Sequence record: PP180005
Strand: one strand, 5' to 3'
Length of the DNA: 53,846 nt
Origin: Escherichia phage mEp554
Every line of letters starts with the position of its first letter. Within the stretch, counting starts at the first letter, position 1. The notes beneath the pieces are model-generated. The model saw only the letters and a program-made list of their open reading frames with translations, was not told the origin of the DNA and did no database searches. Positions 2,855-29,409 of this stretch are shown here, piece by piece. The translations under genes were made by a program, and so were the position numbers.

Positions 2855-3048
2855 GATACACCGTTACTATTTTTCCACTGCGCCCGCGCATACATGATCG
2901 CCCGCAAAGAAATTAGGCGCGAGCTTGTCATAAAAGCGCTTTTTAAGTACCTCATATCAACAACAACAGGCTTATCAGGATCGTCGCTGCGCATGTATTC
3001 CGCAATCGTGCTCAAGTCTTCAACTGTCAATTCCAATTCCCTGTTCAT
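2851..3048 (-). CDS. Hypothetical protein
   Basis: Start at MNRELELTV with AAGGTGG SD. Confidence 0.45.
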   Translation of the reverse strand: MNRELELTVEDLSTIAEYMRSDDPDKPVVVDMRYLKSAFMTSSRLISLRAIMYARAQWKNSNGVS

Positions 3049-3058
3049 GATCGCCACC

Positions 3059-3265
3059 TTACACAATCCGCATTGTGTTTCGTAATTCACCGCGCAACGC
3101 CTGTAAAGCGTAACGAATCGACACAAAAGCCCGGTTAAATTTTACGTGCCTGTATTTGCGCATTAGTGGCGGCGTATAAACCATCGCGCCGCAAGGATCG
3201 CATGGGAATTTAAAGTGAGATTCGTCAATAAACGTTTCAACTGAATAAAAAATTACCCGTCTCAT
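3059..3265 (-). CDS. Hypothetical protein
   Basis: ORF with ATGA start/stop overlap to upstream gene. Confidence 0.4.
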   Translation of the reverse strand: MRRVIFYSVETFIDESHFKFPCDPCGAMVYTPPLMRKYRHVKFNRAFVSIRYALQALRGELRNTMRIV

Positions 3266-3819
3266 AATTCCAACCCCGTTTCGCCGTTAAGTTTTTCGAT
3301 CTCAAATATTGGTTTATCCGGTAGCAGGCCGTTATTTTTCCGGTATTCGTTCAGGCGTCTGTCAAAGTCAAAAGCCAAATCATTAGCGTGACCGAAGCGC
3401 CCAGGTTTAAACAATGAGTAAAAATTTACCCCGTGTCGGTTAGGGTCAACGCAAAGCGTTTCATCAATAACCATTAAACGCAGAGTACGAGATAGATAAT
3501 TCCACGGAATACCCGTTTCCGCGCTAATGTCGCGCATACGCTTTTTAACGCTGTAGTCACCAAATAACGCAGCGACGCGCTCGCGACGTTCAGCATATAA
3601 CTGTTTAATACGATAACCAAGCAGTCGGCGGCGGCGTCCAAAACATGTATACACGCGCTCGACGATGCCGTTTTTTATTAAGTGTTTAATTGTCTCAGGC
3701 ATGATTCCATCCTTATCATACCCGACCAATAATCCTGTTTTCTGGCGTAACTGGTGCATTGTTGCGATGCCATCAAGTTCAAGGATATTGATAATTTTTG
3801 TTTCAATTTCAGCGCTCAT
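3262..3819 (-). CDS. Hypothetical protein (185 aa)
   Basis: ORF with GAGG SD; downstream of helicase in the same operon. Confidence 0.55.
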   Translation of the reverse strand: MSAEIETKIINILELDGIATMHQLRQKTGLLVGYDKDGIMPETIKHLIKNGIVERVYTCFGRRRRLLGYRIKQLYAERRERVAALFGDYSVKKRMRDISAETGIPWNYLSRTLRLMVIDETLCVDPNRHGVNFYSLFKPGRFGHANDLAFDFDRRLNEYRKNNGLLPDKPIFEIEKLNGETGLEL

Positions 3820-13667: not shown

Positions 13668-14288
13668 ATGAAAGACATCAAAACGGCTTATTCACTAGGC
13701 AGCGATGGCATGTTAATCACTCGCTACACTGAAGATGCAAGTTTTCATGAAGTGGAAACGAAGGACTATCACGAAGTGCTAAAGGATATGGAAGCTGGAG
13801 CGTATGACGCAGATTTGAACCTGGCGTTACAGGTTGCTGATATTGTGATGGAAGCGTCGATGCGCGACTATGTGTCTTTGGATAATGAAGAAAAAACGGC
13901 TGTAGCTCGTTATGTCTTCTGCCTCACTTTTGTGAAACGCATGGAAGAAGAATATGGTCGCGTGCCAGTGCCGGAAGAGCTTGATCCGCTGGCGTTCGGC
14001 AGTGCTGTTATCTTCCCGTTAGACGAAAACCATATGGGTAGCGCTGCACTGTATTCTGTGCGCGGCGTAATGAAGAAAATATTTGAGGCCAAAGCGCTAC
14101 ATAAGTGCATTGATGAAGGGCACAACGAAGAAGACGTAAGAGCGATCATGCCGCTGTTTTATGGCGAAATGGTTGGTATTAACATGCGTGCAAATGATTT
14201 AGGCGTGCAGGCGGCTATATCTATGCTTAATGAAGCACGAAAAATGTCACAGCCAATGCCTGAACCTGAAAAGCGCGTACTTCATTAA
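13668..14288 (+). CDS. Hypothetical protein (206 aa)
   Basis: ORF; no recognisable motif. Confidence 0.55.
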   Translation: MKDIKTAYSLGSDGMLITRYTEDASFHEVETKDYHEVLKDMEAGAYDADLNLALQVADIVMEASMRDYVSLDNEEKTAVARYVFCLTFVKRMEEEYGRVPVPEELDPLAFGSAVIFPLDENHMGSAALYSVRGVMKKIFEAKALHKCIDEGHNEEDVRAIMPLFYGEMVGINMRANDLGVQAAISMLNEARKMSQPMPEPEKRVLH

Positions 14289-19234: not shown

Positions 19235-19413
19235 AAAACGAAATTAAAGATCTGCAAATAGATATTCAGCGCGATGAGCATGATTTAGCTACAGTCCGAC
19301 AAATCCAGGCTTTCCACATGAGAGAACTGCTTGCGCTGAAAGAGCTTGAAAGAAAGTTGGTCCAATCAATATCTGATCGTAAACGTCTGGTTGCTCGTTA
19401 CGGGGGCAAATAA
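19231..19413 (+). CDS. Hypothetical protein
   Basis: ORF in operon. Confidence 0.45.
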   Translation: MKNEIKDLQIDIQRDEHDLATVRQIQAFHMRELLALKELERKLVQSISDRKRLVARYGGK

Positions 19414-20135
19414 TGAATCTGGAATCAATTCTTAAATTCCACTTCCCAAAATCACCGCGTTTGTCAGATGAAAGCCGGGGCACGTCCCCGGATGCGCTTA
19501 ATACTACTGATGCACTAACTGCCGCAGGTATGGCGCAATCGCGCGTAGAGCTTGGTTATAGCGCTTTTTTGGGGAAGATGGAACTATCACAAGCCGAAAA
19601 GCATAAGGCCGTAGTTTTGCTTATAGAGCGTTTAAGGGCTATGGCAAAAGACTATGAATACGTTATGGAACTGGACGAGGCCAAACGCAATGATCTCATT
19701 ATTCTTGTTGCCGTTTTCGCATTTCGGGATTATTGCCAGAGTGCCGCGACGGAAAAAACTTGTATGGAGTGCGGCGGATATAAATTTACGTTTGACGAAT
19801 ACGGGGAAAAACACCTTTGTAAAAAATGCAAGGGGCATGGGACAGTTCGCAATCATTGTAAACAATGCAAGGGCCGTGGCGAAGTACCGGATAAAGCAGC
19901 CAGCGAAGCGGCGGAAATGCCAGTGTTCAAAACGTGCCAGCGCTGCGGCGGGCGCGGGTACTCGCGTTTCCCTGTAGATCTTGTCCGGCAGGCGGTTAAT
20001 CAGCTTGTTTTTCCGGTAAGCCGATCAACATGGTGGAAGAAATACCGGGCTTTCTATGAAGACGCCATTGCCGAATTGTTCAAAGAAGAGGCGCGGGCTG
20101 ACAACGAAATTAAACGAGTGACGCGGGGTGAATGA
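19413..20135 (+). CDS. Q-like late antiterminator (phage 82 type) with four CxxCxGxG zinc-finger repeats
   Basis: N-terminal MNLESILKFHF...SRGTSPDAL recalled as Q82-family; CMECGGYK, CKKCKGHG, CKQCKGRG, CQRCGGRG. Confidence 0.6.
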   Translation: MNLESILKFHFPKSPRLSDESRGTSPDALNTTDALTAAGMAQSRVELGYSAFLGKMELSQAEKHKAVVLLIERLRAMAKDYEYVMELDEAKRNDLIILVAVFAFRDYCQSAATEKTCMECGGYKFTFDEYGEKHLCKKCKGHGTVRNHCKQCKGRGEVPDKAASEAAEMPVFKTCQRCGGRGYSRFPVDLVRQAVNQLVFPVSRSTWWKKYRAFYEDAIAELFKEEARADNEIKRVTRGE

Positions 20136-23972: not shown

Positions 23973-24159
23973 ATGCCTTATTGCTGTGACTGTTTTGCTT
24001 TATATCGCTGGCGCGATCTTGATGTCATGTTTTATTAAGGTTAGTGAGGCTGACCGTTGCGGATTTGAGATCCCTTTTTGGCCTGTATTGGTTTTTCTCG
24101 CTTTCTTTGATGCTACGGTAGTGCAGATCAAACAAGCTATTAAGGAGCGCAAAAAATGA
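23965..24159 (+). CDS. Small membrane protein (two hydrophobic segments)
   Basis: MIECLIAVTVLLYIAGAILMSCFI...FWPVLVFLAFF; GAGGA SD. Confidence 0.45.
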   Translation: MIECLIAVTVLLYIAGAILMSCFIKVSEADRCGFEIPFWPVLVFLAFFDATVVQIKQAIKERKK

Positions 24160-24338
24160 TTGAAGACGGCATCTATGGTGTAAACCAGATGGAAAACGTT
24201 TTTTACATGGTTGACGGCGATACCGTAACAATCAGCGTAGATGGTGGGGAATACGCAGAGCCATTCTTCAAAACAACAAGGGAAGACATTAAGCGAAGCG
24301 TTGATAAAGGCATACTATTTAAGGTTGGCGAGCTATGA
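24156..24338 (+). CDS. Hypothetical protein
   Basis: GGAG SD; N-terminal MIEDGIYG shared with next ORF. Confidence 0.45.
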   Translation: MIEDGIYGVNQMENVFYMVDGDTVTISVDGGEYAEPFFKTTREDIKRSVDKGILFKVGEL

Positions 24339-24511
24339 ACGAGATCGAAGACGGCATCTATTTGCACATGTTATTTAACATCGCCTATTTGGTTAAAGGT
24401 GATAAGGTGATGATTCAGAATCCAGAAAGTAAATGCTGGGAATCAAGCATGATGGATCGTTGGCACATGCAAATGCTACTTGATAATAACCTGATATACA
24501 GAAAGCAGTAA
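24335..24511 (+). CDS. Hypothetical protein, N-terminal paralog of preceding ORF
   Basis: MNEIEDGIYLH versus MIEDGIYGV. Confidence 0.4.
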   Translation: MNEIEDGIYLHMLFNIAYLVKGDKVMIQNPESKCWESSMMDRWHMQMLLDNNLIYRKQ

Positions 24512-24519
24512 AGCCGTAT

Positions 24520-24548
24520 TTGTGGCTCGAAAACAAACGGATTAAAAT
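24520..24548 (+). promoter_or_regulatory. Sigma70-like promoter immediately upstream of lysis cassette (candidate late promoter)
   Basis: TTGTGG, 17-nt spacer, TAAAAT. Confidence 0.4.
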
Positions 24549-24576
24549 ATTACCTAACAATGCGAAACTGTAACTA

Positions 24577-24598
24577 CCCGGCCCCGTGCCGGGTTTTT
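24577..24598 (+). terminator. Rho-independent terminator about 30 nt downstream of the candidate late promoter (tR'-like)
   Basis: CCCGGC-CCCGT-GCCGGG hairpin followed by TTTTT. Confidence 0.6.
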
Positions 24599-24618
24599 GC
24601 TTTGTTGGAGGTAAATCT

Positions 24619-24819
24619 ATGTTCGACAGAATACGGGAGGCGTGTGCGTATGTGACTGGTGCAGTAACCGCTTTTTTCGGTGCTATAACCATCAATGACG
24701 TCGCTGTTTTCGTTGGTATCTTATCAACCATAGGCACATTTGCCGTTAACTATTACTTTAAATCACAGGAGAACAAGCGAGCGCAAGAGGAACACGACGC
24801 GCGAATGGGGAATAAGTAA
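24619..24819 (+). CDS. Holin (pinholin-like, two TM segments)
   Basis: 67 aa; GGAGG SD; resembles phage 21 S-type pinholin architecture; precedes SAR endolysin. Confidence 0.7.
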   Translation: MFDRIREACAYVTGAVTAFFGAITINDVAVFVGILSTIGTFAVNYYFKSQENKRAQEEHDARMGNK

Positions 24820-25311
24820 ATGATTAGCCAATCGCTGAAAAACAAGATTGTTGCTGCGGCGGCTGGTGGTGCAATCGCTATTGCGGCGGTGATGATTAAG
24901 CCATTAGAGGGCGTGGAATACGATCCATATCGTGATGTTGTTGGCGTATGGACTGTTTGCTACGGTAACACCGGAAAAGACATCATGCTTGGGAAGACTT
25001 ACACGCAATCAGAATGCGATGCTTTGCTGAACAAAGATCTACACAAAACCGCAAAAGCGATTGACCCATATATCAAAGTCGAAATATCAGATTTTACCCG
25101 CGCTGCACTTTATTCCTTCGCCTATAACGTAGGCGCAACCAACTTCAAAACATCAACCTTATTAAAGCTACTCAATGACGGCAAGAAATCGGAAGCGTGC
25201 GCACAGCTTAAACGCTGGGTATACGCTGGCGGTAGGAAGTGGCAAGGCCTGGTAAACCGCCGCGATGTTGAATATGCCGTTTGCGAATGGGGGGAAACGT
25301 GGACAAGGTGA
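24820..25311 (+). CDS. SAR endolysin (GH24 lysozyme, phage 21 R-like)
   Basis: N-terminal weakly hydrophobic [21 protein letters not shown] segment; [34 protein letters not shown] lysozyme core. Confidence 0.85.
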
Positions 25312-25769
25312 AGGCGTTAATTATCGCCGCTGTTGTTTGCATTATTGCCAGCCTTACCGCCGTAACGTGCCATTACCAGAGTGAGGCGACAAGGTTACAG
25401 GAAGAGTTAACGACCACGCAAGGCGCACTGAAAACAGCAAGTAACACTATTCAGCAGATGAAGGAGCGAAACGCCGAACTGTCAAAACTTGATAAGAGGT
25501 ATCACGATGAGATTAAAGCTATCAGATCTGACATTGCCGATCTGCGCACTGGTATTGATAACGGCACTATCAGGCTGCGCGTCAACGCAATACCCGTGCG
25601 AGTGTCCGACCCCGCAGGAACCGCCAGCGCCATTAATGGAGCCTCCTGTAGACTCACTCCCGACGCTGAATCGGCTTATCTATCCCTCAGAGAACAACTA
25701 AAAGAGAAAGACGCGAAGATAACCGCGCTTCAGGGATACATCAAAACGCAGTGCTTACGCAAAGAATAA
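25287..25769 (+). CDS. Inner-membrane spanin Rz-like
   Basis: N-terminal [15 protein letters not shown] then coiled-coil; overlaps endolysin 3' end; start uncertain (25281-25308). Confidence 0.7.
25507..25701 (+). CDS. Outer-membrane lipoprotein spanin Rz1-like, embedded in Rz in +1 frame
   Basis: Lipobox LSGC after signal segment; proline-rich [14 protein letters not shown]. Confidence 0.65.
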   Translation: MRLKLSDLTLPICALVLITALSGCASTQYPCECPTPQEPPAPLMEPPVDSLPTLNRLIYPSENN

Positions 25770-26048
25770 CAGTGCGTTGACGTGTCGCCGTTTCTGCCAG
25801 CCAGCCATAACCGGGCCAATCCTTCCCGCGAGCGACGGCAGAATAGTCAAAAACACGTAATGCCGGATCAACAGTCCCATTAACAGGTCAGGCGCTACCT
25901 GGGTAGAAGAAAGCGCCATCCACCAATTTTATAAAATTCTGTAAACGGTACTCACACAGCGCCGTTTTCAGTGTTTTATAGCTGTTTTCACTCCCTGCGG
26001 TGTCCAGTTTTGCGGGGGTTATATTTTTCAGGATAGAGGAATATTCTG

Positions 26049-26606
26049 ATGGCTAAGGCTAAAGGCATTAAGTTGCCTCAATTCAAAGTCCCGCTCTTTG
26101 AGCATACAACTGTTTTCTTTTGCCCGACCCGCGAGATGTTCTATGAGTTTTGCGAAAAGGCAGGGATCCCAATCGAACCTGATTTCGAACTGGCAGGAGG
26201 ATTAACGCTTACTTGCACTGGTGAGAAAGGCGGTAACTTCTACGTGATCGCAGTATTCGACAATGAGTTAGGAACGCTGGTACATGAAGCGGCCCATACT
26301 ACATTTCACGTTTTAAGTGATGTAGGCGTCGTGGCGACCACTGATCCCAGCCATCCGGCAAACGAGACTTATGCTTACATGGTAGGCCGTATCTTTGATG
26401 CTTTCTTCCCCATCCTGGCAGAATCAAATGAAGCACAGGTGGCAGCAATGCAGGCAGAAGAAATAACCGAACGTCTTAGCGCACAAGAGGCAAGGGATAT
26501 TGCTAATGAGGCAAAAGACAAGCAAAAGCCAGCTAAGAAAGGCAAACGTAAGCCTAAAGCAAAAGAGGCGCTTGTGCCGCGTGTTATGAGCTTTAAACGG
26601 GGGTGA
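26049..26606 (+). CDS. Hypothetical protein with HExxH motif (possible zinc metallopeptidase) and lysine-rich C-terminus
   Basis: LVHEAAHTTFHV; C-terminal KDKQKPAKKGKRKPKAK. Confidence 0.55.
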   Translation: MAKAKGIKLPQFKVPLFEHTTVFFCPTREMFYEFCEKAGIPIEPDFELAGGLTLTCTGEKGGNFYVIAVFDNELGTLVHEAAHTTFHVLSDVGVVATTDPSHPANETYAYMVGRIFDAFFPILAESNEAQVAAMQAEEITERLSAQEARDIANEAKDKQKPAKKGKRKPKAKEALVPRVMSFKRG

Positions 26607-26608
26607 TT

Positions 26609-26704
26609 ATGGGTATCCTTCTGGTATGTGTATTTATTGCTTTAGTTGCGATGGAGGTATTGCTCCCCATTTGGGCGGCGACCTGGATGATGCAAGATGA
26701 TTGA
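26609..26704 (+). CDS. Mini-gene 1 of array: hydrophobic peptide (31 aa)
   Basis: MGILLVCVFIALVAMEVLLPIWAATWMMQDD; GGGGGTGA SD. Confidence 0.4.
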   Translation: MGILLVCVFIALVAMEVLLPIWAATWMMQDD

Positions 26705-26771
26705 CCCGCTCATTATCCTTTCTGCCTGCGTCGCTGTATGGCTGGCGATCATGATATTCATTGAAAGCTAA
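26697..26771 (+). CDS. Mini-gene 2 of array (24 aa)
   Basis: MIDPLIILSACVAVWLAIMIFIES; start overlaps mini-gene 1 stop. Confidence 0.35.
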   Translation: MIDPLIILSACVAVWLAIMIFIES

Positions 26772-26781
26772 AGGCGTTCAC

Positions 26782-26856
26782 ATGAATATTTACGATCTAA
26801 TCTGGTGGTTGTTGGTCGCCGTCATTATCTATTTCTGGTGGAAGAATGTTGTATAG
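26782..26856 (+). CDS. Mini-gene 3 of array (24 aa)
   Basis: MNIYDLIWWLLVAVIIYFWWKNVV; AAAGG SD. Confidence 0.4.
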   Translation: MNIYDLIWWLLVAVIIYFWWKNVV

Positions 26857-26864
26857 GTGACGGC

Positions 26865-26963
26865 ATGGATATATTCGAATTACTGGCGATTATGTTCGGA
26901 ATGATGTTAAGCATTGTCGCCATAATTATCATCATCGGCCTTGTTATGGGTAGCATCAAATGA
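26865..26963 (+). CDS. Mini-gene 4 of array (32 aa)
   Basis: MDIFELLAIMFGMMLSIVAIIIIIGLVMGSIK; AGGTGA SD. Confidence 0.45.
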   Translation: MDIFELLAIMFGMMLSIVAIIIIIGLVMGSIK

Positions 26964-27040
26964 ACGCATACGAAATGCTATTGCTGGTGGCTGTTATTAC
27001 AGTTATCGCCGTAGATTTTTATCGAGGGTTGAAAAGATGA
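26960..27040 (+). CDS. Mini-gene 5 of array (26 aa)
   Basis: MNAYEMLLLVAVITVIAVDFYRGLKR; ATGA overlap. Confidence 0.4.
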   Translation: MNAYEMLLLVAVITVIAVDFYRGLKR

Positions 27041-27108
27041 GAGAAGCAGACTTCTTTTGCATGATTATAGTGATCGTCATCGTTGCCGTGCTTTTAAGCG
27101 TTAACTGA
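27037..27108 (+). CDS. Mini-gene 6 of array (23 aa)
   Basis: MREADFFCMIIVIVIVAVLLSVN; GAGGG SD; ATGA overlap. Confidence 0.4.
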   Translation: MREADFFCMIIVIVIVAVLLSVN

Positions 27109-27125
27109 ATCGCAGGAGGTTAAAA

Positions 27126-27194
27126 ATGAAATTGCTTGATTTCTTTTTCCTGATTGTTGCGATTGTTCTTACCATGACCGCGCTGACTCAATAG
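27126..27194 (+). CDS. Mini-gene 7 of array (22 aa)
   Basis: MKLLDFFFLIVAIVLTMTALTQ; AGGAGG SD 7 nt upstream. Confidence 0.45.
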   Translation: MKLLDFFFLIVAIVLTMTALTQ

Positions 27195-27202
27195 GTGAAT
27201 AT

Positions 27203-27277
27203 ATGGAAACTATCGAAGCAGTATTATTCGTGTTCATCGCTGCGGTTGTTATTGTTGGGTTTATTATCAATGTCTGA
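27203..27277 (+). CDS. Mini-gene 8 of array (24 aa)
   Basis: METIEAVLFVFIAAVVIVGFIINV; AGGTGA SD. Confidence 0.45.
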   Translation: METIEAVLFVFIAAVVIVGFIINV

Positions 27278-27338
27278 CGTCGATTTCTTAATCATAGCTA
27301 TAAGTTCGCTGTTAGTCGTTATCGTTTTCTTCGCATAA
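27270..27338 (+). CDS. Mini-gene 9 of array (22 aa)
   Basis: MSDVDFLIIAISSLLVVIVFFA; start overlaps mini-gene 8 end. Confidence 0.35.
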   Translation: MSDVDFLIIAISSLLVVIVFFA

Positions 27339-27348
27339 AGGGTAAGCA

Positions 27349-27432
27349 ATGAAAGAGCTATTCGACTGGTTGGAAGTATTAACATACTGCGCAAGTTTTG
27401 TGGCTTGCGTATATATCATCAACAAATATTAA
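27349..27432 (+). CDS. Mini-gene 10 of array (27 aa)
   Basis: MKELFDWLEVLTYCASFVACVYIINKY; AAGGG SD. Confidence 0.4.
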   Translation: MKELFDWLEVLTYCASFVACVYIINKY

Positions 27433-27442
27433 GAGGTGAAAT

Positions 27443-27928
27443 ATGGCCCGCACGAAAAAGGCAAAGGCTGAAGACAAAAAGCCAGCAGCCAAAAAGACGG
27501 GCCGTCCACATGGCTATTCAGAAGAAAAGGCATTGGAGATCTGCGAGCTTGTGTCGGACGGCGAAAGTATTAACAAGATTTCGAAGATGCCTGGTATGCC
27601 TGCACGTTCAACAATCCTCAAGTGGTTCAGAGATGTGCCGGAGTTTTCGGACATGTATATGCGCGCGAAGGAGATCGGATTCGAGGTGTTAGCTGATGAG
27701 ATCATCGACCTTGCTGACGCGCCAGAGAACATCAAAAAGGAAGAACTGAACAGACACCATTTGATGATTGAAACTCGTAAATGGCTATTAGCAAAACTGC
27801 AACCGCGTAAGTATGGCGAGCGCGTCACACAGGAGATCGTCGGCAACAAGGAAGAGGCGCCCGTCCAGGTGGAAGTCACGAAAGAAGAGATCGCCCGCAT
27901 CGTCCAGGAAGTAGAAGACGAGGTGTGA
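27443..27928 (+). CDS. Terminase small subunit
   Basis: 161 aa; basic N-terminus, HTH-like segment; AGAGGTGA SD; overlaps terL start. Confidence 0.75.
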   Translation: MARTKKAKAEDKKPAAKKTGRPHGYSEEKALEICELVSDGESINKISKMPGMPARSTILKWFRDVPEFSDMYMRAKEIGFEVLADEIIDLADAPENIKKEELNRHHLMIETRKWLLAKLQPRKYGERVTQEIVGNKEEAPVQVEVTKEEIARIVQEVEDEV

Positions 27929-29409
27929 TTATGCTGACAATCAGAGAACGAGTCATTCAGTCCAAATGTGAAAACGATGGCCTGTTTTTCAATCGCTACT
28001 TCTATAAGCAAGCGAACGGAACGAAGATGTTAATCTCAGGCCATCATTTAGCCATCCGTGATGCACTGCAACGCGTTGTCAATGGTGAGATAACCCGACT
28101 CATCATCAACATTCCCCCAGGGTACGGTAAGACAATGATCGCTACCATCAATATGATGGCACGGTCCCTCGCAATAAATCCCCGCACAAGATTCCTTCAC
28201 GTTTCCTATTCCAATAACCTTGCGTTACTCAATTCATCGACTGTAAGAAACATGATCTGCACGCCTGAATATCAGGCAATGTGGCCCATGAAGATCCGCA
28301 ATGATGCCAACAGTAAATCTATGTGGTGGACAGAATACGGTGGCGGCGTGTACGCGACCTCATCGCTGGGCCAGGTAACTGGGTTCCGTGCCGGGTATAT
28401 GGAACCAGGATTTAACGGCGCGTTAATCATCGACGACCCATTGAAACCTGCTGACGCTTATTCTGACGTGGTGAGAAAGCAGGTAAACACCAACTATAAC
28501 GACACGCTTGCGTCACGTCTGGCAGTGCAAACGACGCCTGTTATCGTCATTATGCAGCGCATCCACTACGATGATTTGTCCGGCTACCTGTTACGCGGTG
28601 GGAGTGGGGAAAAGTGGTATCACCTGAACCTGCCAGTGAAGATTGACAACAGCGTTGACTATTGGGATTTGTACCCTGAAAACGAGTTCGCCATCCCTAT
28701 TGCTCACAACCTGCCTGATGGCTGGCTGTGGCCCAGGAAGCACAATGACGAACATGAAGCAGGACTGAAAGCACACAGGCGGTCATTTGAGGCCCAGTAC
28801 ATGCAGCGCCCGCGTAAATTCGACGAAGAGGGTGCATTGTGGACTGAAGCCATGATAACCGCAGCGCACCGGATGCAGATAACGCAGGACAAGATTCGCA
28901 CAGTGGTAGCCATCGACCCGGCGACAACATCATCGGAAGAATCGGACGAAACGGGGATCGTTGCATGTTCCGCTTACGGTGGCGGCAAGAATGCTCAGTA
29001 TTCTGTTGATGGTGACTACTCAGGACGCATGTCCCCTAATGCCTGGGCGCAAGCAGCAATGAGCGCATACGACATTCATGAGGCTGACGCGATGGTTATC
29101 GAAACCAACCAGGGCGGTGAAATGGCAGAGGCCACGCTACGCAATGCAGGATTCAAAGGCCGCATTGTTAAGGTACACGCAAGCAAGGGTAAATTCGCCC
29201 GCGCCGAACCAATATCTGCACTGTATGCACAAGGAAGGGTGGCCCACACTGGTGAACTGTACACGCTGGAAAATCAAATGATGGAATACGTGCCAGCTAC
29301 CGCCAAAAAATCCCCTGACCGTATGGACGCAATGGTATGGGGCATTACCGAACTGAGCCAGCCACAGGCGATGGGCCTCATGTTACCGAAGCGCCTGCGC
29401 GGATTTTAA
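27925..29409 (+). CDS. Terminase large subunit
   Basis: 494 aa; P-loop NIPPGYGKTM; nuclease-domain acidic motifs (IIDDPLKP, VVAIDPATT); position after terS. Confidence 0.9.
   Translation: MIMLTIRERVIQSKCENDGLFFNRYFYKQANGTKMLISGHHLAIRDALQRVVNGEITRLIINIPPGYGKTMIATINMMARSLAINPRTRFLHVSYSNNLALLNSSTVRNMICTPEYQAMWPMKIRNDANSKSMWWTEYGGGVYATSSLGQVTGFRAGYMEPGFNGALIIDDPLKPADAYSDVVRKQVNTNYNDTLASRLAVQTTPVIVIMQRIHYDDLSGYLLRGGSGEKWYHLNLPVKIDNSVDYWDLYPENEFAIPIAHNLPDGWLWPRKHNDEHEAGLKAHRRSFEAQYMQRPRKFDEEGALWTEAMITAAHRMQITQDKIRTVVAIDPATTSSEESDETGIVACSAYGGGKNAQYSVDGDYSGRMSPNAWAQAAMSAYDIHEADAMVIETNQGGEMAEATLRNAGFKGRIVKVHASKGKFARAEPISALYAQGRVAHTGELYTLENQMMEYVPATAKKSPDRMDAMVWGITELSQPQAMGLMLPKRLRGF

Follow-up and report, generated by a model that had tools for sequence, protein, structure and literature searches.

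A conserved structured leader RNA and a predicted zincin gene between the lysis and packaging genes of Escherichia phage mEp554

The lysis–packaging junction of mEp554

The window, by which we mean the whole 53,846-nt stretch of DNA that was analyzed, comes from Escherichia phage mEp554 (sequence record PP180005), a temperate coliphage of the mEpimmI group. Over the 1.8 kb around the locus described here the nearest relative is Escherichia phage mEp010, at 97% identity, while mEp044, mEp013, mEp021, mEp515 and MagusPhagus are 90–95% identical over the same length. The mEpimmI phages are Nus-dependent, non-lambdoid temperate siphoviruses that have a self-cleaving repressor of the CI/LexA-like kind (PMC11893012).

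Every gene of the region lies on the + strand, in the order holin, lysozyme, Rz, a gap, a 185-aa ORF, the mini-ORFs, the small terminase gene terS, and the large terminase and portal genes (Table 1). Rz is the final gene of the lysis cassette, and forms the upstream border of the gap. About ten mini-ORFs lie between the 185-aa ORF and the Sf6-type TerS, and a promoter-plus-terminator pair is found directly upstream of the holin gene.

Table 1. Features at and around the lysis–packaging junction of mEp554, in window coordinates.
Feature	Position	Strand	Basis
Q-like antiterminator gene	19413-20135		
Holin	upstream of lysozyme	+	PF16080
Lysozyme	24820-25311	+	PF00959
Rz i-spanin	25281-25769	+	PF03245, E 2e-24; phrog_13, E 1e-41
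Rz1	25489-25701, embedded in Rz	+	ORF list
Conserved structured RNA, 151 nt, 8 helices, 37 base pairs	25770-25920	+	conservation, covariation, covariance model
57-58-bp insertion/deletion polymorphism	25921-25922		alignments of relatives
Hairpin 1, ~20-bp stem-loop, outer stem UAUAAAAU/GUUUUAUA, U-rich 3′ side	25930-25980	+	folds, sibling annotation
Hairpin 2, 9-bp G+C-rich stem UCCCUGCGG/UUGCGGGGG, 9-nt loop, then UUAUAUUUUUC	25992-26029 (stem-loop 25992-26018)	+	fold, -11.8 kcal/mol
Hairpin 3, small stem around the RBS	26028-26049	+	folds of 29 distinct leader sequences
N-terminal domain, aa 1-125, predicted minimal gluzincin-like metallohydrolase	26049-26423	+	phrog_1365, invariant residues, AF2 model
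HEAAH, codons 79-83	26283-26297	+	invariant in 60 homologues
E106, putative third ligand	26364-26366	+	invariant in 60 homologues
Acidic helical linker, aa 126-157	26424-26519	+	alignment; single long helix 103-158 in full-length model
Lys/Arg-rich disordered tail, aa 158-185, KQKPAKKGKRKPKAKEALVPRVMSFKRG, with stop codon	26520-26606	+	composition; pLDDT < 50
Sf6-type small terminase (TerS)	27443-27928	+	PF20901, E 3e-36

The initial annotation of this DNA described the gap after Rz as 280 bp of untranslated sequence. A gap is indeed present, at 25770-26048; since Rz ends at 25769 and the next ATG is at 26049, its length is 279 bp. It is non-coding, as had been proposed, but it is more than a spacer, being conserved at or above the level of the flanking genes and showing RNA covariation. 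Positions 25786-25905 are 87–94% identical across nine diverse relatives, at least as high as the flanking coding sequences. The lysis genes of these nine relatives are 66–92% identical per 40-nt bin, and in the mini-ORF region identity falls to 25–70%. The conserved 5′ block of the gap includes an invariant core of 40 nt.

One-base insertions and deletions occur at several sites among 34 distinct sequences of the gap, and neither strand retains a reading frame; the ORFs of the gap are therefore not conserved genes. The phanotate program calls an ORF on the minus strand of the gap in mEp013 and one on the + strand in mEp010. We considered a small minus-strand gene, comparable to the Bor-like moron of lambda, and rejected it because the 54–60-aa ORFs shift frame among the relatives. 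A 57–58-bp insertion/deletion polymorphism lies immediately 3′ to the conserved block. The window carries the short form, while the long form, present in 12 of 61 loci, has one extra hairpin (ACCTGC...GCAGGT).

A structured RNA and three hairpins upstream of the 185-aa ORF

The first 151 nt of the gap begin directly after the upstream stop codon and have the character of a structured RNA with invariant loops. An eight-helix structure was obtained for the + strand using RNAalifold. When 24 distinct sequences were aligned independently with MAFFT, 99.0% of the cells at paired positions could pair, and seven pairs were changed on both sides, compared with 1.6 ± 0.7 in shuffled alignments (none of 500 reaching the observed value) and 0–2 when the partners are slid; the phages compared are closely related, and one divergent lineage (L009/L010) supplies most of the double changes in helices 2 and 3. 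The corresponding values for 37 distinct rows of a second alignment (A7) are 99.3% of cells paired and eight pairs changed on both sides, this alignment having been fitted to a covariance model that was itself built from the MAFFT alignment.

Which strand carries the structure? About 5% of the paired cells are G-U, and these become A-C mismatches on the minus strand. Since such pairs are valid solely on the + strand, the RNA is read from that strand. The covariance model finds exactly one copy per locus in 60 loci from phages and prophages, each reading in the direction of the late operon. A small RNA transcribed from the minus strand was rejected on the same G-U to A-C argument; in addition the consensus fold of that strand shows little covariation, and no promoter was found for it.

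The element has no match in Rfam 15 at E ≤ 1 when the region 24000-28000 is searched. With the gap alone the best match is Histone3, whose 16 bits fall short of the gathering score of 34. The covariance model reveals no related RNA in the P22-like loci, a scan of genome contigs for the core of the RNA found none, and the invariant CU-rich loop has no target within the window. The element was found in the mEpimmI group only, in 35 of 5,426 complete E. coli genomes, in 35 viral contigs and in 17 metagenome contigs. Judged by its conservation and covariation, 25770-25920 is a conserved structured RNA that has no counterpart in Rfam.

The RNA element precedes the HExxH ORF in all 60 loci for which downstream sequence is available. 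Two loci have an unrelated ORF, of 200 aa in one and 100 aa in the other, inserted between Rz and the element, and in both the element starts 0–7 nt past the stop codon of the inserted ORF. It stays beside the HExxH gene despite insertions upstream, and therefore travels with that gene as its leader.

These data bear on a simpler reading of the gap, that it is the remnant of a decayed gene or a neutral spacer, conserved by recent descent or recombination and with an incidental RNA fold. Every instance does come from one closely related group of phages, relatedness alone may exceed the shuffled controls, and there are the short minus-strand ORFs of 54–60 aa together with the phanotate calls in mEp013 and mEp010. 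Yet the block is conserved above the adjacent, essential lysis genes of the same genomes, the ORFs are broken by 1-nt insertions and deletions in different relatives, and the insertions of foreign genes avoid the block. Moreover, pairs changed on both sides are the measure least sensitive to relatedness, and seven to eight of them are seen where shuffles give 1.6 (0 of 500) and slid partners 0–2. We therefore regard a remnant or spacer as distinctly improbable.

Between the 151-nt element and the start codon there are three consecutive hairpins (25930-26048), with a folding free energy of -35 kcal/mol compared with -23.3 ± 2.9 kcal/mol for shuffled sequences (z = -4.0, 0 of 200). The initial annotation saw no terminator-like hairpin in the gap. 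That statement does not hold, as two of the three hairpins are followed by U-rich tracts and the records of sibling phages annotate a terminator here. A simple terminator scanner missed the hairpins because their loops exceed its range of 3–8 nt.

Hairpin 1 is AU-clamped, and is kept in all the relatives that were examined. It is recorded as a Rho-independent terminator in mEp021 (TERM_6) and in mEp013 (ARNold T11). Compensatory changes are found within it, A-U being replaced by G-C in the L009/L010 lineage and G-C by A-U in L021/L028. Hairpin 2 has the form of an intrinsic terminator. The sequence of the window is allele A, present in 39 of 61 loci; allele B (UUCCUG...CAGGAA), in 20 of 61, has a different sequence that still forms a hairpin, lacking the U tract. 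In hairpin 3 the loop exposes the Shine-Dalgarno sequence GAGGAA (26036-26041), and the bases immediately preceding the start codon are paired; in allele B the Shine-Dalgarno sequence falls within the stem of the hairpin. The folds are kept across 29 distinct variants of the leader. The form of a Rho-independent terminator, a G+C-rich stem-loop followed by a U tract, is thus seen in hairpin 2, and hairpin 1 has a U-rich 3′ side. Terminator activity is a prediction for both, because the U tract of hairpin 1 is interrupted, the loop of hairpin 2 is 9 nt long and allele B lacks the U tract. In the paper on these phages, t1, t2 and t5 are the only terminators for which experiments are described.

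A family of small predicted zincins

The ORF at 26049-26606 encodes 185 aa containing LVHEAAHTTFHV, and its C-terminal tail is highly basic, with 12 Lys or Arg and a single Asp or Glu in the last 28 residues (pI 11.8); both features had been noted initially and both stand. No other HExxH occurs in the window's open stretches of 100 codons or more. One such motif could easily arise by chance, and its significance here comes solely from its invariance throughout a diverse family.

The protein matches phrog_1365 of the PHROGs database (E 6e-30, residues 1–131), a family with no assigned function there. Its close relatives, at 64–96% identity, are all E. coli prophage proteins that share the N-terminal 125 residues, the linker and the basic tail. 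The linker varies in both length and sequence, and in 58 relatives the protein is 175–194 aa long. The basic tail is kept within the mEpimmI group; three relatives (P0113, P0116 and P0118) have an alternative tail that is also basic. An exhaustive profile search collected 222 representative relatives, nearly all of which are standalone proteins of 110–140 aa. One hit of 5449 aa (P0168) was set aside as repetitive and apparently unrelated, matching profile positions 3–24 only.

Sixty homologues sharing 23–56% identity with the query were aligned, and in this alignment just five columns, G51, H79, E80, H83 and E106, are invariant. P15, F70, T76 and Y110 are nearly invariant. E106 sits in the motif NE(T/A)(Y/F), 23 residues beyond HExxH. 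The alignment of the diverse family has no conserved stretch of 7–10 columns. As read in the sequence, the invariant residues are exactly the signature of a gluzincin, that is HExxH with a glutamate on the next helix.

The AlphaFold2 model of the domain has a pLDDT of 92.9 and a pTM of 0.86. The order of elements is a strand (21–25), a helix (28–38), two strands (51–57 and 63–69), the helix that carries HExxH (74–91) and a further helix (104–126), with E106 near its start. The zincin core comprises a three-stranded sheet and an N-terminal helix followed by two catalytic helices (Iyer et al. 2017, PMC5512222), and the order of secondary structure in the model is the same as in this published core. 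We conclude that the N-terminal domain has a very high probability of being a metal hydrolase with the zincin fold.

To which zincin family does it belong? The initial annotation suggested a zincin-like peptidase, and proposed a search for ImmA/IrrE, DUF4157 and SprT domains. The suggestion holds at the level of the superfamily, with the invariant HExxH and glutamate and the predicted zincin topology, and for none of the named families, as Pfam gave no match for the protein of the window. Scanning the protein against NCBIfam and PADLOC was equally uninformative, and sequence searches of the PDB with two profiles gave chance matches only (uridine phosphorylase and RNase A). Comparison of structure with the PDB using Foldseek gave a best E value of 0.09 for the domain model, and 0.17 for the full-length one, in which the long helix dominates. 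The search of predicted viral structures in BFVD was more productive, with 29 matches at E < 1e-3, most of them unnamed. The named top matches are SprT-like (1.3e-5 and 2.5e-3), Metalloprotease (1.2e-3) and SprT (6e-3), these names having been assigned automatically. Two relatives have been named by other annotators using HH-based methods, one as 'PolyVal Metallopeptidase' and the other as 'SprT-like family protein'.

The model thus weakly resembles SprT-like viral proteins. The profile PF10263 (SprT-like) matches 17 of 60 family members below threshold, with a best E value of 1e-4 and only over the 16–20 residues of the motif helix; the matches that were inspected score 12.6–14.9 bits over profile positions 60–79, against a gathering cut-off of 25.6 bits. 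The protein of the window itself has no match to PF10263. There are similarities to SprT-like, Wss1 and Spartan proteins in the active-site helix of those 17 members, in the viral structural matches with SprT-like names, and in a basic region that could bind DNA. In contrast to those proteins, the third ligand is here probably Glu106 rather than histidine, and there is no zinc ribbon. We rejected membership of the SprT-like family because the scores lie below the cut-off and no third histidine ligand is conserved, H87 being present in the E. coli phage proteins but not kept through the family, whose invariant candidate ligand is E106.

Minimal zincins, and the MPTase domains of polyvalent proteins (PMC5512222), are closer in form, having the HExxH helix, the glutamate on the next helix and the sheet with its N-terminal helix, and being phage-encoded. 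They differ from the present domain, which is a standalone unit of ~120 aa that matches no Pfam family and has no solved structure detectable using Foldseek. Membership of the MPTase-PolyVal/ArdC group was rejected, since the family consists of standalone proteins of ~110–190 aa rather than domains of a large polyvalent protein, and PF18818 gives no match.

A protease of the ImmA/IrrE type (M78), or a similar enzyme that cleaves a repressor and so controls the switch between lysis and lysogeny, would have the observed HExxH...E spacing, which resembles that of M78. PF06114 (M78/ImmA) matches one relative at E 0.073, which is not significant, and Pfam offers nothing further for this assignment. 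No Xre-type repressor is adjacent, the neighbours being Rz and the mini-ORFs, and membership of Peptidase_M78 was rejected on these grounds. The gene belongs to the late operon and is distant from the immunity region, and the CI/LexA-like repressor of these phages cleaves itself (PMC11893012). We consider such a function very unlikely. We regard the protein as a new, uncharacterised member of the known zincin superfamily, assigned at the superfamily level only.

Where else does the family occur? Homologues were found by tblastn in 82 phage records, including two P22-like groups. In the first, Orf129 of phages L and ST64T and gene 70 of epsilon34 are 44–45% identical to the protein, and in ST64T Orf129 is located between Rz and the Dec and terS genes. 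In the second, HkcC of HK620 is 35% identical, and the HkcC-type copy lies in the immI region. P22 itself has an intact ORF equivalent to HkcC (HECAH...NETYCY) between sieA and mnt, which is unannotated in the reference record. These are true homologues at 35–45% identity, with the Orf129 group occupying the same slot between Rz and terS; unlike the mEp554 protein they are of ~110–130 aa, without the linker and basic tail, and they too are uncharacterised. In other enterobacterial prophages that have different terminases the family gene is 0–2 genes upstream of terS. Distant members lie beside a nucleotide kinase, or in the early region with Erf, SSB and Rha, and such locations in early and recombination regions show that there is no universal functional link to packaging. 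The family is an accessory phage gene that is often, but not always, found at the lysis–packaging junction.

In GenBank the homologue in mEp021 is labelled 'hypothetical protein', and another gene of the region is labelled as a virion structural protein; the mEp021 paper identified 16 virion proteins by mass spectrometry. The paper on IbfA and UAB_Phi20 contains nothing bearing on the HExxH gene.

Place and possible role in the late operon

The initial annotation had suggested that the packaging signal might lie here or in the following array; the reading considered is a pac or TerS recognition site in the gap, the ORF or both, at which headful packaging would start. In lambda cos lies between the lysis and terminase genes, and the interval occupies a comparable position. 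The unusual conservation of the 5′ block with its 40-nt invariant core would fit such a site, as would the occurrence of family members 0–2 genes upstream of terS in several groups of enterobacterial phages. Against this, the TerS of mEp554 is of the Sf6/P22 type (Table 1), and in phages of that type, as known from P22, pac lies inside the terS gene. Pairing in the block is kept as + strand RNA, with Watson-Crick and G-U pairs, which a site in duplex DNA would not need. In addition the ORF is ~840 bp away from terS, with strongly varying mini-gene DNA in between, and distant members of the family are far from terminases. The literature on the mEpimmI phages, including PMC11893012, has no data on DNA ends. 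A packaging site at 25770-26606 is unsupported, and we give the idea very little credence; from the type of the terminase, pac is more likely to lie inside the Sf6-type terS.

We think it on balance probable, if by no means secure, that the interval is a conserved unit of the rightward late operon, comprising a 279-nt structured leader and the gene of a small metal-dependent hydrolase that is expressed late and tethered by its tail. The leader has four parts, the 151-nt multi-helix RNA, the AU-clamped long hairpin, the G+C-rich hairpin with its U tail and the RBS hairpin. Late expression is inferred because the gene is co-directional with the lysis and packaging genes between which it lies, a Q-like gene is present (19413-20135) and a promoter-plus-terminator pair precedes the holin gene. 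The protein would be made late, alongside the packaging proteins. The hairpins may act as partial terminators and as a gate on translation, punctuating the operon between the lysis and packaging modules, and RNA polymerase modified by the Q-like antiterminator would pass through them. The 151-nt domain could be a cis-acting leader element involved in regulation, processing or stability. In the enzyme, the model suggests that H79, H83 and E106 would hold a zinc ion, with E80 activating a water molecule as general base. By analogy the acidic helix and the Lys/Arg tail might anchor the enzyme on nucleic acid or some other polyanion, making it a nucleic-acid-associated protease comparable to zincins of the SprT/Wss1 and ArdC types.

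There are parallels to this arrangement. The Q-dependent punctuation at pR′-tR′ of lambda, the put RNA of HK022 and the leaders of riboswitches and attenuators have in common with it a structured RNA, terminator-like and RBS hairpins, and a Q-like gene. In contrast to put the element described here is much larger, with its 151 nt and eight helices. Unlike the lambda-type and leader RNAs it is located in mid-operon rather than just after a promoter, and it belongs to no Rfam family.

What might the protein do? Our leading guesses are counter-defence, and the clearing of proteins off DNA before packaging. In the first case it would be a protease of counter-defence or host takeover, acting late or carried with the DNA into the next cell by its basic tail. 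A role in counter-defence or takeover has been proposed for ArdC and for the MPTase domains of polyvalent proteins (PMC5512222), and an HH-based pipeline has labelled one relative a PolyVal metallopeptidase. Members of the family are found in accessory, 'moron-like' slots, one of these being beside sieA in P22, and the basic tail would suit such a role. The domain is however standalone rather than part of a polyvalent protein, and PF18818 does not match it. The mEp021 homologue carries the label 'hypothetical protein' in GenBank, the virion structural label being on the other gene of the region. PADLOC also gave no match, its library being one of defence rather than anti-defence proteins. Counter-defence or host takeover is a tentative suggestion, and an unlikely one as it stands.

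A more ambitious form of the late-operon reading can be put forward, which we hold to be unlikely. Here the 151-nt domain would be a new class of cis-regulatory RNA that, with the hairpins, sets the flow of transcription and translation from lysis to the zincin and packaging genes, and the zincin would be a protease tethered to nucleic acid. The leader could then sense a ligand or a protein, or be an antiterminator like put. The zincin might bind its own leader through the Lys/Arg tail, or might strip proteins from concatemeric DNA before packaging.

The most novel item at this locus is the leader RNA and its covariation. For annotation, two easy errors are corrected, that of calling the gap empty and that of placing pac within it. 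The leader could show how a temperate phage balances the expression of lysis and packaging genes in a single late operon. The gene that follows it belongs to a widespread, uncharacterised family of very small phage zincins, and all the mEpimmI-type phages and prophages that were sampled have it as a core gene; this group is said to be common in the human gut. Identification of the substrate would explain what hundreds of phage genes now labelled 'hypothetical' do, and could expose a new step of host takeover or DNA clearing.

Predicted late transcription signals upstream of the lysis genes

A gene located ~4.3 kb before the lysis cassette corresponds to a relative's protein that carries the Pfam antitermination domain PF03589, and judged by its sequence it is a Q-like late antiterminator. 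Directly upstream of the holin ATG (24619) there is a sigma-70-like promoter followed after ~90 nt by a predicted terminator hairpin, a layout similar to that of lambda pR'/tR'. The mEp021 record marks this terminator as TERM_5, with a score of 100. The holin start itself is placed at GTG 24586 in the ORF list for the window, as against the 66-aa form initiating at ATG 24619 that is annotated in the relatives.

Features of the lysis-to-packaging region and of related loci (window coordinates unless stated; L numbers denote loci of related phages)
Feature	Location	Strand	Remarks
Predicted Q-like late antiterminator gene	19413-20135	+	97% identity to a relative's 240-aa PF03589 protein
Sigma-70-like promoter	within 24460-24619	+	TTGGCA-16-GATAAT, 10/12 match
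Strong terminator hairpin (predicted)	24576-24594	+	6 G-C pairs + UUUUUGCUUUG
Terminator-like hairpin	25728-25711	-	within 3' end of Rz gene
Invariant leader RNA loop	25806-25835	+	CCAUAACCGGGCCAAUCCUUCCCGCGAGCG
Leader insertion/deletion polymorphism	25921/25922		57-58 bp
Ten tandem mini-ORFs	26609-27432	+	22-32 aa each; occupy space up to terS
Extra genes in relatives	L002 (mEp013) 2927-3412; L007 3752-4273; L008 4129-4731; L037, 5' of the RNA element
Zincin-domain homologue, intact ORF	P22 NC_002371 ~13861-14217 (L005 ~2501-2857)	+

Variation and invariance in the leader

The leader of the zincin gene exists in two forms. The long form, which contains an additional hairpin (ACCTGC...GCAGGT), is found in 12 of 61 loci, including those of mEp010, mEp013 and mEp021; the leader in the window is of the short type, as are those of mEp044 and MagusPhagus. 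One loop of the leader RNA is absolutely invariant, and contains a CU-rich, anti-Shine-Dalgarno-like stretch; a search of the rest of the window for a complement to this revealed no target. A minus-strand hairpin also lies nearby in Rz, and neither a minus-strand promoter nor a conserved ORF that it might serve was found.

Gene content around the lysis-packaging junction

Additional genes have been gained or lost near this junction among the relatives. In mEp013 an HNH endonuclease gene lies immediately 3' of the zincin gene, in L007 an HNH_3 gene sits between lysozyme and Rz, and in L008 and L037 unrelated ORFs (200 and 100 aa, respectively) separate Rz from the RNA element. None of these extra genes interrupts the unit of leader and zincin gene. 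A homologue of the zincin domain is also found in phage P22, in an ORF placed between sieA and mnt and containing MKKVNIGNVPKM...HECAH...NETYCY. The reference P22 record gives this ORF no gene annotation; the features marked at this place are limited to the promoter of sieA and the terminator of mnt.

The mini-ORFs that follow the zincin gene mostly have an SD-like sequence of their own, and each of their products begins with a few polar residues, after which come ~15-20 hydrophobic ones resembling a transmembrane segment. This stretch is the least conserved of the lysis-to-terS region (25-70% identity among the relatives compared), which suggests that mini-ORF units have been gained and lost.
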